From Pecten maximus (lineage: Eukaryota), in contig NC_047032.1 of assembly GCF_902652985.1 (NCBI RefSeq), positions 18,662,001 to 18,726,000 on the forward strand: a DNA stretch of 64,000 bases, given 5' to 3'. The stretch's first letter is position 1. The number at the start of each line of letters is the position of its first letter. The position numbers are program-made. Positions 1 to 6,000 of the stretch are shown here, piece by piece.

Positions 1-3000
1 GAGTCATATCATCTGCGGATTTATATTATATGCCTGTCTACATACACATAAATAGCAGGATGAGTTTATCTTTTATTGTAGATTATTGAATGTCGTACCT
101 GCTATCCATTTCCCTCGGGGACAACTGCGTAGTATTATCGCCGCGAAATTAATCAACAGTAACAACGTGAGATTGAAAATTTTGATAAACAATTCATGGA
201 AAACATATCTTTAAAGCATTTCAGAATATGATAATGGTTTTCTGAATATTTAGTTTAAGGGAATATATCATGAAGTTACAACAATCACATTAAATATCAT
301 ATAGAATTTTTTATACTAGATAAAAAAAAGGATGTTTAAGTTGTATGCTAGTCACATGTAAAAAAAACATTACAAGCTGACTCTCCTTGGATATTGGCAC
401 TTGTAAAAATACTAGTTCAATTACGGAGTTATTTTAACAGTGGTCCAGAACATGCTGTGTCAAAGTAACATTTCCAGAACGCCCAGCGCTCAGCCAAAGT
501 GACGGCCTTACGCATACAAGTCCGCTTTGGCTTAGAAGGTGGGGTCGGTGGTTCATACAGGGGATTCTTTGCCATAACCTTTCCTTGCTTGTAGTTAGGC
601 TTATATCGGCGGTAACATTCGAAGCCTGCAAAATAGGCAAACACAAATTTTGATTTACGCATATTCTCAACCTGTACAGGAAAAAAAGGAGCAATTACCT
701 TTTAATGTGGAATATACAACGACTTGTTTTGTTTAAAGCGAATGTAACTTTGGTTTCCATACTCATTGGAAGATGATTAATTCTTTTAAATAGGGAAATG
801 GGTTTAAGATAAAGCAATGCACCAGCTTTTATCGTAAAACATGTTCTGTAAATACATATTTTGTTCAAAACACGTTTTATATCGATCGATATTTGTAAAC
901 CATGCTACTGGAAATAGGCCGAATGAAGTCGGGTGCGAGTAATGAGTCTATGCAGTATTCTGCTTACGAACGGTAAAATTGCATTCTTGTAGGATCTACC
1001 GAATTGAAATACTATTCTTTTGCACTGATTTCTGTATTTAATATTAACTAGGAATGCGGACAATTGAAATATCGAAATTAAGGGAAAGTCTAGGTTTTTT
1101 AAACAATATTTTAATATATTTCGCCAGATAATAGTTTCCAACTGACTTCTTTTACAGTTATAACCGCTTTAAATCATTCGAATTAATAGTCTATTCCAAC
1201 TCCCTATTCACTTTTCTTTTATCTGTTTTTTTTATCGGGTTTTGTTTTTTGTTCGCTTCTAATCATCACCACTCTAGGTCATTGTACTACCGAAAAGTCA
1301 AAGAATGACAAAACATTCGCAGGATGCAGTATAATTAACTTTGGCTCAAATATAACCATCAATTTGGTTTGAAAGGTGCTATTATCTTGTGTTTCTTTTG
1401 CACACCATTTGCCCATACACTTTAGAAAAGAGCATATTTCTCCAATGTCTTCTGTTAAGGATCTGCTCTTGTGAAAAGTCGAAATTTTCTGATGACAAAC
1501 TTTTAAAATGTTATACCTCATTTCCAAGGGGAGAATACCGAGATATAAAAAAGAATCGCTGTTACAATGTGTTATCGGACATGGAATGTTTTTAGAATTG
1601 ATAAACCGTCTATATTCTTTTTTAGATTAGAAGCTAGATTGACCAAATCAATTATCTCTAATCAGAACAGCAAATTATGTAACCCATTCCCCTAAATTTT
1701 GAAGTATAAAATACCCAATTTTCACCATTTTTCCTACATTTAACGCTTCATATAAAAAGTTCTGCTGACTAGCATTTTAAGATATTCTGCAGATCGGGGG
1801 GTCGGTGTGCTTTAATTTTTGTACCGAACTGATATTTACTTTTCAGCTTTTTGGGTATAAATTTTAAAGTGCTGAAGTTAAAATAAAAGAGAAAATGAAA
1901 TGCCAAAAGGCTATTTGTTGTGGATTATTTTCCATGTATTAAATATTGTACATTTTTAAAGTAAAGATTAATTAGAAATATTCATAACTGCCATAGCAAT
2001 TATGTTTTAAGTAAAAACAGTCCAAAAATATGAAACCTGAGCCATAAACAAAATGCAAGAAAAAATTCGTTTAAAAGCAAATAAATCTGCTAACTTCAGA
2101 AGTCTGTTTTTTTTCATATATATATTACAAATGCATTTTATGCAAGATCGAAACGAGACTTCAACGTGACTGAAACCTCAGAAGAGCAGATCCTTAAGCA
2201 TAAACATTAGAGAGCCTAAGATTAAAGAAAGCTAATATCGTTGCGCAGTTGAAGGGACATTTCAGATACCGGGATAGATCTAGGGCACAAAATAAAAGTG
2301 ATTCCTTTTTTTCTTAAAATCGGAATGTCTATAGCAACAACGTTAAACTCCGTAAAAGTAAGTACAATTAAACATGTAGGTCATTTAACATATTACCGAG
2401 TCCGAATGAAAACATGAAATAATGATCATCTCGCAGGTATTCGTGCCTTTTTAAGACTTTGAGATTCGTCCTTATCCTATATGCTAGATTTACATTCTGA
2501 GGTATACACAAACATGTTTTTAATCTCTTCAAAGTCCAATACAGATTTAAAGTTTATGTATTCACAACTGTGACTCCTCTTCTATATCTGAACAATTCAT
2601 TAGGACCTTTCCATTTTGTATGACTCCCTTTCTAGATTGTCATTCTTTGATCCGAAGCATCATTGACGAGTTATAGAAGAATATAGCTATATGAAACGGT
2701 TCATCCGTCGCTTATCAGGTATTGCTTAAAGGTGAGATAAATAGAGGTTACACAACGGGTGGTTGTTGGATATGGAATTTATTTTACACGAGTAAGTTAT
2801 TTTTTAAAAGTTACAAAAGACACGAGCTTTAGCGAGTGTTTGTTTGGCAACCTTTTAAAAAATAACTTACGAGTGTGAAAATAAGTTCCATATCCAACAA
2901 TTTCGAGTCGTGTGGACCTGTTTTCGACCACAATAATATCGGCTTGAATCAAAGGAAAACGTTGCCAAGTATAATTTCGCGTATGCAAATAAAGTGTACC

Positions 3001-6000
3001 GGTGAACGGCCGGGACCTGGTGATGTGACATCATTAGATTATTGATGACGTCAATAACAATTGCAGCTTGGTCAAAGTCACCGTGTTAGCCAATCAAATG
3101 CGTACAGAGGTATTAGCCAACATGGTGGTATAAACAGATTGTTAATCAACAGCTGTAACGATTAACTGATGGTCTGAGAGTTGAATAACAAATGGTATTG
3201 TGGTAGAAATATAGTTTTATAAAGACCCGGTAGAATCAAATATCAACCGAAGGTGAAGCCTGATATCAATAGTTTACATTACATATACCAGGTCGGTATA
3301 AAACTGTAATATCGAATCAAGGGTTCTTATTTTTTTATGTTAGGTAGTGTATGAAACTTATTTACAAAAGGATGTAAATGCATAAAATGTATCTTGTTAA
3401 CAGGAGAAATTTGATTGGGGCACTGCGACGTTACATCTTACAATTATAATGACGTCATCAACGCCATATAGACCCTGCGTTCCTCAATATAGAAACGTCA
3501 GATTAATAAAGTGTCTCAAAATACTGTCCTACACGTGACCACGTTTTAGCCAATGAGAATGAAGGAAATATCTATTACTTACAGTGAAAGATCATTCACT
3601 TGTATGTCCTTTGGCGTAATTCTCAATTACTTATCAGATAATGTAGAAATTAACATCAAATTACCTGTCTTGCACGCACAGAGATCATCACAAGTCTCCC
3701 CCAGTCCAGGTTGTTTCATCTGGCAAGTACCGGAAGCTGAAGTAAAAGGAAAAGGTACTTTTCTAACTGAGAGATAAATTGTTTAAGTTCATTCTCAAGC
3801 TATAAGTTTGAAAAATATTTGGTTTATAAGAAGACTGTGTTTATTTTTAAGAGTATGTAGCTTGTAATTTAAGAGGATTTTGTTTTTCTTTACTCATGTT
3901 CTTTTTCCACCAGGCTTAATATTTGTCTTTGGCTAATACCCGAACAAAAAAACTCGAATATCGAAATGATGTATTTACCCCTCTGTAAAGATTAATGAAA
4001 CACAGAGCATGTTATTGGTATTAATTTTATACATGGCACAATAGGTTTAATGACATGAACATTAAAACTGCATGAAAATAAAGAAGTAAACATATATTGT
4101 CTTGGCGTCGGTGGTATTATGTATGTGACGTAGCCGTCAAGTTAAAGAGGACAGTTAGGGAAAACATCTCCGCTGATACCGTCAAACAGGCTCTAACACT
4201 TCAAGGGGATTTCAGTCAATTAATAATGTTGTTTGATCAAAACCAAATTAACTTATTTTAATTATAATTGTTAATGACTGACATTTGGAACCCAATGTTA
4301 CTAATTATAAGATAGAGGCCAGTGAGGGGTCAGTGTGCATTTGCGCAGTAATATACAGCGCATCCTTTGTCCTTTTCCATCCCCGATTTATCGTGAAACA
4401 AAGGGAAGTAACTCTGATAGATCAGAAAACCAGCGACCAAACTTGATATAGACAAATTATATTGTATGTTTGAATTGCATTGAATTATTTAGATTATTTC
4501 TATGAACCTTAAGGGTTACAATTCAATAAGAACACTAACAAGGGAAAAAACTATACACTAGACGTGGTAAATAGTGTACATTGTACACGACGATTTGACA
4601 ATATTTCAATAAAAACCTGATCTATACTTATATACACACTTTACAACACACACATTTAACAATGTTTAATCATGCATGGATTGTTAAAGTATAATACTTT
4701 GCAGATGATAATTAATAGAGAAATGATACATAATTTATCAATTAATAGTTGTATAGCTTTGACAATGTATAAGGAACAATATGATGTGTATAATAGAAAA
4801 TAGCTTATTTGCTTGTCCTTAATATTTTGAAGATTTTGTAAATATATATGAATACCTATACTGAAATTAAATATCATTTGTGTGAAATATAATTTAGCGT
4901 GGTGCCGTTCAGTTTAACAACATTGCTGATTTTCGACCTACCGAGTCCATTTTTGAGCGCGTTTGGTCCGTAAGTATCAGTATCCAACATGGTTCCTGAT
5001 TGGTCAAAACAACACCCAGCGCTGCATTCCGCTGTATGGTGACATTTAAGGCCTATACCATCAATTGTCGTTTTGGGTGGAGGAGGGAGCCTAGTTGGCG
5101 CAGGCGTCGAGGGCGTAAGTCTTGAAGTTGGGTTTAGCGATGTAGGCATGTAGAAGGGATCAGTCGGAGGGGGGAAGGTAGGGGCGTACGGGGATGGTGC
5201 CGTGGGTGGAAACATTGGTGGATTGGTAGGCGCGGTTGGTGGCATAGTTGGCGGTATAGTTGGTGGTGTAGGCCCTTGACCTTGATTGTTGAACAGAGCA
5301 GGACCCGGGAAGGGAAACCGTGGCTGTCCCGGAAAAGGAGCTTGGGGCTCAAATGGTTGCTGGTGGAAGGGTTGCTGGGTTGTCCTTTCATGTATGGGCC
5401 TCTGACGTGGCTTTCCAGGTTGCCTGCCCCGTTTCCTTTTCATCCAGTTTGAGTTTTTGCCTTGCCTGTTGATTCGTCGGTTGCCGCCTTGCCGCCTGGG
5501 GTTTGGATTGTTCCTCCAGTTTCTGTTCTGTTTCGGAGGTTTTTGAAACAATGGTATTTTGTTTGCCAACAATTGAGGCGGAGGGTTGTTCATTATCTTG
5601 TTGTTTACGCTGACTTTGATGAGTGGTTTATTTTTTTCCACAGACTTTCTTTTCCCTCCCCCTCCTCCTCCGATCCCTCCTCCCTGAGCCCTTCGAATAT
5701 GTTGTGATGGTGGTAGTGGGGGTTTCATATTGATCAAACTGTCAGCCATTGGATGCGAATTTTGATTTGGCCTTTGTGGTTGTACCGATGGTTCAAACTT
5801 GTAGGATGGCGACGGGTTTGCGTTACCGAAATTAAACCCAGAAGGGACAAAACTCTGGATACCCGCGACAGATGGAGCTTGTGTAGTTATTGCCTCTTTC
5901 TGAAATTGAAAAGGTTGAGCAAACTGTCGTAATTCAGGGCGGTATGTTGGAAAACCATTCGTCCTCGTATTCTTGTGGGGTTGTATAGAGTTCTGCTCCA

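Follow-up and report, generated by a model that had tools for sequence, protein, structure and literature searches.

What kind of protein does a minus-strand gene at the left edge of a 64,000-nucleotide stretch of the Pecten maximus genome specify? The stretch, here called the window, covers positions 18,662,001 to 18,726,000 of the forward strand of contig NC_047032.1 (NCBI RefSeq assembly GCF_902652985.1), and all positions below are counted from its first nucleotide. Four coding exons of the gene, designated E1, EA, EB and EC from the 5′ side, were predicted from splice signals, and their coordinates are collected in Table 1. Our preferred reading, to which we give a probability of roughly 0.45, is that of an intact minus-strand gene for a putatively secreted cationic protein with a lineage-restricted, strongly diverged C-terminal module of the colipase type. 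The locus had been singled out by a sequence-only reading of the window, which described a domain of the colipase/prokineticin fold spread over three exons of a basic, disordered secreted protein.

The gene-model signals are observed at every junction. All splice sites are canonical and the exon phases are compatible, the codon divided between EA and EB being GCT (Ala, G+CT) and that divided between EB and EC being GGC (Gly, G+GC). The predicted protein has at least 566 residues (97+380+1+23+1+64), a length that does not include the 5′ end. EA is contained in an open frame of 411 codons (4874..6109) that is prominent in DNA of ~33% GC, and all four exons are GC-rich (E1 0.46, EA 0.49, EB 0.53, EC 0.48) against 0.30–0.33 in the three introns and the flanks (0.31–0.33 flanking E1, 0.30–0.33 flanking EC). 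In a sliding-window control over positions 1–12000, from which EA and E1 were left out and in which windows overlapping EB or EC were kept, the GC content of EB was reached by 23 of 1035 windows of its size and that of EC by 16 of 998. EB is open only in the frame demanded by the phase-1 donor of EA. Six GT sites lie in 5010..4900, downstream of the CC doublet; of these, the EA donor (TCG/gtaggt at 4941, the slash marking the exon boundary) alone is strong, the others standing in poor contexts.

The choice of EB was also set against its competitors. Downstream of EA there are 91 open AG..GT intervals with phase 1 at both ends, and EB has the highest Cys density of them all (4 in 23 residues). 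At least four Cys are present in 6 of the 91; three of these are nested versions of EB itself, and the other three are AT-rich frames of 64–70 residues at 1404–1616 and 4661–4855 with far lower Cys density. On the combined strength of the splice signals, the phases, the GC islands and a Cys pattern that runs on across the exons, we consider the junctions E1-EA-EB-EC to be good predictions, and the three exons of the sequence-only reading join as it had proposed.

The C-terminal module built by this splicing contains 12 Cys in 123 residues, with successive gaps of 5, 3, 0, 26, 10, 3, 1, 5, 32, 15 and 5 when the exons are translated separately and the counts summed across junctions. Two phase-1 introns divide it over three exons into pieces of 34, 23 and 64 residues. 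In EA, 346 low-complexity basic residues are followed by the first four Cys (C-x5-C-x3-CC, the first Cys codon being 5044..5042 on the minus strand) and by most of the 26-residue loop. EB carries Cys 5–8 as C-x10-C-x3-C-x-C, and EC carries Cys 9–12, a 32-residue Tyr/Lys/Pro-rich loop and a tail rich in Trp and Phe. The loop between Cys 9 and Cys 10 (519–614, minus strand) holds seven Pro, six Lys, four Tyr and three Arg among its 32 residues, a make-up that presumably recalls the repeats of mussel foot proteins in composition only. The Cys-rich part is basic too (isoelectric point, pI, ~9.9); the residues that precede it read ...TIDGIGLK, and no Trp is found between the CC doublet and Cys 5.

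The framework shared by colipase, the prokineticins and cysteine-rich domain 2 (CRD2) of Dickkopf (Dkk) is C-x5-C-x3-4-CC ... C-x9-10-C ... C-x-C-x5-C ... C. Cys 1–10 of the module (gaps 5, 3, 0, 26, 10, 3, 1, 5, 32) reproduce its ten-Cys order and its three fixed spacings. When 12 Cys were placed at random in 123 positions and compared with these family spacings (gaps 5; 3–4; 0; any; 9–10; any; 1; 5), the framework was matched in 2 of 2,000,000 trials. When the whole window is translated in six frames, the opening motif C-x5-C-x3-4-CC is met only two times, one of them being the instance described here. The Cys spacing given by the sequence-only reading was thus exact over its whole length, including the long Pro/Lys loop and the tail with two further Cys (gaps of 15 and 5). 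Its assignment of the pattern to the colipase, prokineticin and Dickkopf CRD2 group is supported in part, by the three fixed spacings and not by the three variable loops, whose lengths are considered below.

The region in front of the module (E1 together with EA up to the first Cys) comprises 443 residues and no Cys. Its composition is extreme, with 63 Lys and Arg, 11 Asp and Glu, 86 Asn and Gln, 76 Pro and 30 Phe, and the estimated pI is ~12.6 with a net charge of about +52. E1 is a basic, acid-poor exon rich in Asn, Gln, Arg and Phe (1 acidic and 18 basic residues), and by the Uversky charge-hydropathy boundary the N-terminal parts encoded by E1 and by EA are both classed with disordered sequences; the protein is long and strongly basic and, judged from this composition, probably floppy. 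The last part of the region is a linker (EA residues 270–339) in which Pro, Thr or Ser occupy 47 of 70 positions. These results bear out the earlier description of about 430 almost acid-free, Asn/Arg/Gln/Pro-rich residues, of a mucin-like Pro/Thr linker, and of a basic, disordered protein. A comparison of E1 with EA by BLASTP gave a best expect value (E) of 0.52, which reflects common composition, and no clear internal duplication was seen. Dibasic sites are present in the N-terminal region (GKRK at EA residue 143, KRKR at EA residue 215, and RR sites), but the ~130 residues from EA residue 218 up to the first Cys, which is residue 347, contain none. No Pro-Arg-Pro motif was found in E1, EA or EC.

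A number of observations weigh against the preferred reading. In the known families the C4-C5 loop has ~9–11 residues, the C6-C7 loop ~11–16 and the C9-C10 loop ~9–18; the corresponding loops here have 26, 3 and 32 residues and lie outside these ranges, and the number of Cys is 12 rather than 10. The predicted 3-residue C6-C7 link cannot make the finger found in known members. The colipase fold has been described as having four such ‘fingers’ (PMC8877203). A similar five-disulfide topology can, moreover, arise without homology, as in family SF22 (10.1101/485722), and this keeps convergence alive as an explanation. Pfam searches made exon by exon and with short Cys-containing pieces at E ≤ 10 returned no relevant family and only two domains of unknown function (E 0.097–0.26); colipase-fold models were within their reach, PF21481 having turned up as a chance row. 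A piece-by-piece search of PDB sequences likewise returned nothing relevant (one chance match at E 1.5). These exon-wise misses are weak evidence, since a 10-Cys domain divided among fragments of 34, 23 and 64 residues would escape detection even if it were a true member. No paralogue was found in the window by tblastn with the four exon peptides, the best non-self matches being E 0.78 for EB and 0.075 for EC.

Two further results count on the same side. Codon-usage log-odds trained on E1 and EA do not single out EB or EC, with 446 of 4477 null segments scoring at least as high as EB and 146 of 650 at least as high as EC; the score is not discriminating, an outcome probably due to the extreme composition of the exons used for training. 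Upstream of E1, no convincing signal-peptide exon was found in the ranges searched (8517–30000 and 8517–17000). Separately, some matches from the similarity searches were set aside as compositional. Six PDB matches at E 0.007–0.9 were all to prophage or human immunodeficiency virus (HIV) Env chains, and the best non-self tblastn matches of EB and EC, like those of EA down to 4e-11, fell in low-complexity (ACC)n/(CAC)n or G-rich DNA.

The word ‘secreted’ in the sequence-only reading was consequently left without confirmation from the 8.5 kb upstream of E1. In the two ranges just given, the only Met-started hydrophobic mini open reading frame (ORF) with a phase-0 GT donor is the one at 10565..10533, which encodes Met and a 9-residue hydrophobic run and has a weak donor (6 of 9 consensus positions); by eye, a TATA-like box lies too near its ATG. 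A search with strong donors (at least 7 of 9 consensus positions) over 8517–16000 gave 7 ATG mini-exons, none of them hydrophobic, and no exon in suitable phase was found in the upstream GC islands. A hydrophobic ORF at 11.5–11.7 kb was considered as first exon and ruled out by its phase-2 donor.

Signs of a secretory route are of an indirect kind. Symmetric phase-1-1 exons, such as EB, typically belong to extracellular modules that have been shuffled. The four exons encode 49 Asn, none of them within an N-x-S/T sequon, while the reordered N-S/T-x is seen 6 times. Shuffling the residues leads one to expect 5.4–5.7 sequons, and zero is obtained in ~0.2% of trials, the pattern having been noticed post hoc. 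The absence of sequons is what one would expect if a secreted protein were under selection to avoid N-glycosylation. Together with the even number of Cys, the phase-1-1 exon EB and the Pro/Thr/Ser linker, it would indicate, indirectly, that the protein enters the secretory pathway.

In the mechanism that we infer for fold, secretion, binding partner and tissue, the module would consist of two disulfide-directed beta-hairpin (DDH) halves. It would have retained the disulfide core, with ten Cys in the fixed spacings of the family, while three loops were remodelled: C4-C5 would have grown to 26 residues, polar in character, C6-C7 would have shrunk to 3, and C9-C10 would have been extended to 32. 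A further Cys pair would have been added in the Trp/Phe-rich tail. In the putatively secreted protein, the cationic disordered part could use Arg and Lys with spaced Phe to bind polyanionic polymers or surfaces, for instance those of microbial envelopes or of a matrix that is acidic or sulfated; the Pro/Thr linker may act as an extended spacer, and the disulfide-locked head as a stable docking module whose enlarged basic Tyr/Lys/Pro loop would offer a contact surface. Host defence is one candidate setting, by analogy with the penaeidins and stylicins, in which the parts follow one another in the same order (PMC11678341), though Pro-Arg-Pro is absent here. Matrix or adhesion and signalling are alternative candidate settings. 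A role in shell, periostracum or byssus, as proposed in the sequence-only reading, is a conjecture; no link between the colipase/prokineticin/astakine fold and shell matrix or byssus was found in the main text of the papers listed by a literature search. We regard as a long shot the more elaborate proposal that shuffling of phase-1 exons placed a colipase-fold module, as a disulfide-locked anchoring head, on a giant cationic protein of matrix or adhesive that undergoes phase separation, in which one finger would have been replaced by the 32-residue Tyr/Lys/Pro loop and surface-binding loops would serve material assembly instead of signalling or lipase activation.

Of the rival explanations, the one that comes nearest, somewhat unlikely in our judgement, keeps the gene model and takes the module for a disulfide-rich domain specific to the lineage and without homology to the colipase fold, derived from a knottin or DDH domain or wholly new, with a spacing match that is convergent or coincidental. 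It draws on the lack of a profile or sequence match for any exon, on the three variable loops far out of range (the 3-residue C6-C7 link removing one finger), on the 12 Cys and on the precedent of SF22, and the first six Cys presumably also fit the knottin order C-C-CC-C-C; it has to set aside the joint occurrence of all three fixed spacings, seen so rarely under random placement. That the gene encodes an astakine- or prokineticin-like cytokine or hormone precursor, from which convertases would cut off the basic pro-region and release the Cys-rich C-terminus, we consider improbable. Known members of the prokineticin family are small, a 70-residue Pro/Thr/Ser linker is atypical of pro-regions, and the dibasic and Gly-Lys-Arg-type sites at EA 143 and EA 215 and the RR sites, which would suit this explanation, leave no obvious cut that frees the domain, because the stretch of EA from residue 218 to the first Cys has none. 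The ‘processed precursor’ alternative of the sequence-only reading is weakened for the same reason. Several mollusc prokineticin-like or astakine genes with cytokine roles are on record (PMC8398477, PMC6425005), and the long form of prokineticin 2 (PK2) has a basic 21-residue insert and proteolytic activation (PMC8877203). Against this, oyster precursors are described as a signal peptide (in 4 of 5) and the ten-Cys domain, the description making no mention of a long N-terminal region (PMC8398477), and the prokineticin hallmarks AVITG directly before the domain and the surface residue Trp24, needed for receptor activation (PMC8877203), are both absent from the present protein.

Two other rivals question the cellular location or the gene model itself. 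An intracellular, possibly nuclear, basic protein whose Cys cluster binds metal and forms no disulfides would explain why no signal-peptide exon was found upstream of E1, would suit the extremely basic, low-complexity composition, and would give a meaning to the Lys/Arg clusters KRKR and GKRK, which resemble nuclear localisation signals. It is quite improbable, the more so as the sequence has neither C-x2-C nor C-x2-H pairs and just two His in the neighbourhood of the Cys; a CC doublet and C-x-C are what disulfide-rich modules typically show, an extracellular protein is suggested by the Pro/Thr/Ser linker as well as by the phase-1-1 exon, and the depletion of sequons should matter only in the secretory pathway. 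Least probable of all, and by our estimate very unlikely indeed, is an artefact of the gene model, in which real transcripts do not splice EB and EC onto EA, EA reads through to a stop 22 codons past its donor, and the Cys pattern results from choice among many possible exons. Window-wide, small open phase-1-1 intervals with at least four Cys are in fact not very rare (11/1566 on the minus strand and 24/1384 on the plus strand), codon-usage scoring does not discriminate, and an open frame of 90 codons, like the one surrounding EC, is nothing unusual on its own in 64 kb. To uphold this, one would have to dismiss that EB and EC are sharp GC islands with edges exactly at good splice sites, that EB has an open frame in no phase but the required one, and that the junction-bridging spacings of 26 and 5 complete an even 12-Cys pattern matched by so few random placements; EA alone would, in addition, end in four Cys without partners for a full domain. 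The colipase-type module at the end of an intact gene is the reading with which we proceed.

Table 1. Positions of the predicted exons, the parts of the encoded protein and the other features of the window; a slash marks an exon boundary
Feature	Position	Strand	Details
Exon E1	8516..8226	minus	97 codons; acceptor ttgcag/, donor AAG/gtatag; phase 0 at both ends
Exon EA	6082..4942	minus	380 codons + 1 nt; acceptor ttacag/, donor TCG/gtaggt
Exon EB	3736..3665	minus	72 nt; pyrimidine-rich acceptor ccttttccttttacttcag/, donor CAG/gtaatt; phase 1 at both ends
Exon EC	625..432, stop 431..429	minus	acceptor ttttgcag/
AATAAA polyadenylation-type signal	72..77	minus	no other AATAAA or ATTAAA from the stop to the edge of the window; 352 nt past the stop
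Pro/Thr/Ser-rich linker	5066..5275	minus	EA residues 270–339; Pro, Thr or Ser at 47/70
First part of Cys module (Cys 1–4 and polar loop)	4942..5044	minus	regular-expression match at 5009–5044
Weak candidate first coding exon	10533..10565	minus	11 codons; donor CAA/gtgcat; phase 0
Two-exon gene, dienelactone hydrolase / carboxymethylenebutenolidase family	62328–63977	minus	Pfam DLH 4e-24 and 1e-8 for the two ORFs
Retroelement	~46467–50496	minus	RVT_1 1e-11; downstream tyrosine-recombinase-like ORF, Phage_integrase E 0.006
DNA-transposon remnant	28888–29992	plus	THAP-like ORF (E 1e-3), then HTH_Tnp_4 ORF (4e-11)
Tail of a retrotransposon without long terminal repeats (non-LTR)	58597–59763	plus	388-codon ORF, zf-RVT 4e-10; directly after an N run
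Tandem array	35646–37968		42 bp x 55
Tandem array	43679–44837		192 bp x 6
Tandem array	50734–53229		55/116 bp x 43
Tandem array	54630–57048		26/52 bp x 93
N runs	58282–58465 and 60835–61007		within (CAC)n/(ACC)n low-complexity DNA at 57857–58268 and 61049–61579
Compositional tblastn matches	57.8–58.3, 61.0–61.6 and 34.7 kb		low-complexity tracts, (ACC)n/(CAC)n or G-rich

The introns of the gene contain repeats of their own, namely a minisatellite at 6413–7103 with units of 27–102 bp and a short inverted-repeat element at 2750–2913 with 36-nt arms and 92 nt between them. The putative first intron includes a 285-nt GC island (9201–9485), the start of which looks by eye like a tRNA-derived short interspersed element (SINE) and was left uncalled by ARAGORN and Rfam; Rfam and tRNA scans of the window gave no matches. 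GC content across the window ranges from 0.26 to 0.41 per 2 kb, no Alu-head motif was found in it, and no feature suggests a human contig. At its far end, the dienelactone-hydrolase gene has a Met start, a donor GAAAAG/gtgtgt and an acceptor tgtgcag/, with RIB26 (8g2z_3D, 2.7e-21) and carboxymethylenebutenolidases as its best relatives in the PDB. The retroelement has a DIRS-like layout, with several of its ORFs fragmented. Some of the four large tandem arrays generate long spurious ORFs, and the (CAC)n/(ACC)n DNA yields Pro/Thr/His-rich pseudo-ORFs that resemble the Pro-rich part of EA by composition only.

What would follow from the preferred reading depends on the fold assignment. The colipase fold has so far been met in small cofactors, cytokines, toxins, Wnt antagonists and one Hydra antimicrobial. 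If the assignment is true, the fold would here form the C-terminal head of a disordered, cationic protein of great length, and its loop lengths would go well beyond the known range; the loop geometry that it is known to tolerate would be widened, and the gene would supply a candidate host-defence or matrix protein of separable parts (polycation, Pro/Thr spacer, disulfide head). If it is false, the gene encodes another lineage-restricted Cys-rich secreted protein, ordinary for invertebrate genomes. Since colipase-fold proteins are already known in lophotrochozoans, what is new would at best be the architecture, and no long-standing open question is touched.

Among known systems, pancreatic colipase presumably shares the spacing of the C-x5-C-x3-CC opening and of the C-x-C-x5-C block exactly. 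It differs in being a small secreted lipase cofactor, whereas the present module has no profile match, other loop lengths and two more Cys. In Dkk proteins the C6-C7 loop region bears residues that contact the receptor, and this loop is nearly deleted here. The present protein also lacks a profile match and, with no Cys in its 443 N-terminal residues, lacks a CRD1, a domain that has eight Cys in cnidarian and protostome Dkk (PMC6425005). The missing CRD1 does not by itself exclude a Dkk-like origin, as Hydra Dkk1/2/4 is also without it (PMC6425005). What is shared with Dickkopf is a C-terminal ten-Cys domain of the colipase fold, CRD2, with little similarity elsewhere, and members that consist of CRD2 only exist (PMC6425005).

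Ten conserved Cys and the colipase fold unite the colipase, prokineticin and Dkk families (PMC6425005, PMC8398477, PMC8877203, PMC3303826), and the superfamily is almost without similarity beyond its Cys (PMC6425005). Its loops are freely elaborated, and derived families differ in their disulfide count (10.1101/485722). As in the present gene, introns interrupt the 10-Cys domain in vertebrate prokineticin genes, where it is divided over exons 2 and 3, with an additional exon in PK2 (PMC8877203). Prokineticin-like genes have been reported from nearly all lophotrochozoan phyla sampled, with 35 transcripts in one monoplacophoran (PMC6425005) and five in the oyster (PMC8398477). These prokineticin-like and astakine proteins resemble the present module in their ten Cys and colipase fold and occur in several copies per mollusc genome (PMC6425005, PMC8398477), and invertebrate astakines, like the present domain, are without the AVIT N-terminus (PMC8398477). 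Set against the precursors described from oyster, the Pecten protein is distinguished by its long basic region, its Pro/Thr linker, the enlarged C4-C5 and C9-C10 loops, the 3-residue C6-C7 link and the extra Cys pair.

In the arrangement of its parts the protein comes close to the penaeidins, stylicins and arasin, in which a Pro-rich, mostly cationic N-terminal region is followed by a disulfide-rich C-terminal domain, one penaeidin having an additional low-complexity Ser-rich region (PMC11678341). Those peptides have 37–117 residues and 4, 6 or 13 Cys in other frameworks, and the penaeidin type is marked by Pro-Arg-Pro motifs and a C-terminal domain with six Cys (PMC11678341); the present protein is about ten times longer than such peptides, has no Pro-Arg-Pro and places its 12 Cys in another framework. 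In the nature of the module, the likeness extends to the neuron-derived antimicrobial peptide NDA-1 of Hydra, which is taxon-restricted and cationic and has been modelled on colipase 1N8S (PMC5614986). The precursor of NDA-1 is small, its signal peptide being followed by a domain of 71 residues and a C-terminal piece of 38 (PMC5614986), whereas in the Pecten protein the module is C-terminal behind a basic, predicted-disordered region of 443 residues, with 12 Cys and very different loop lengths. The two have in common a cationic module with a ten-Cys pattern of the colipase type, and NDA-1 is described as showing ‘no congruence’ with prokineticins, astakines, Dkk and colipase beyond the Cys themselves (PMC5614986).

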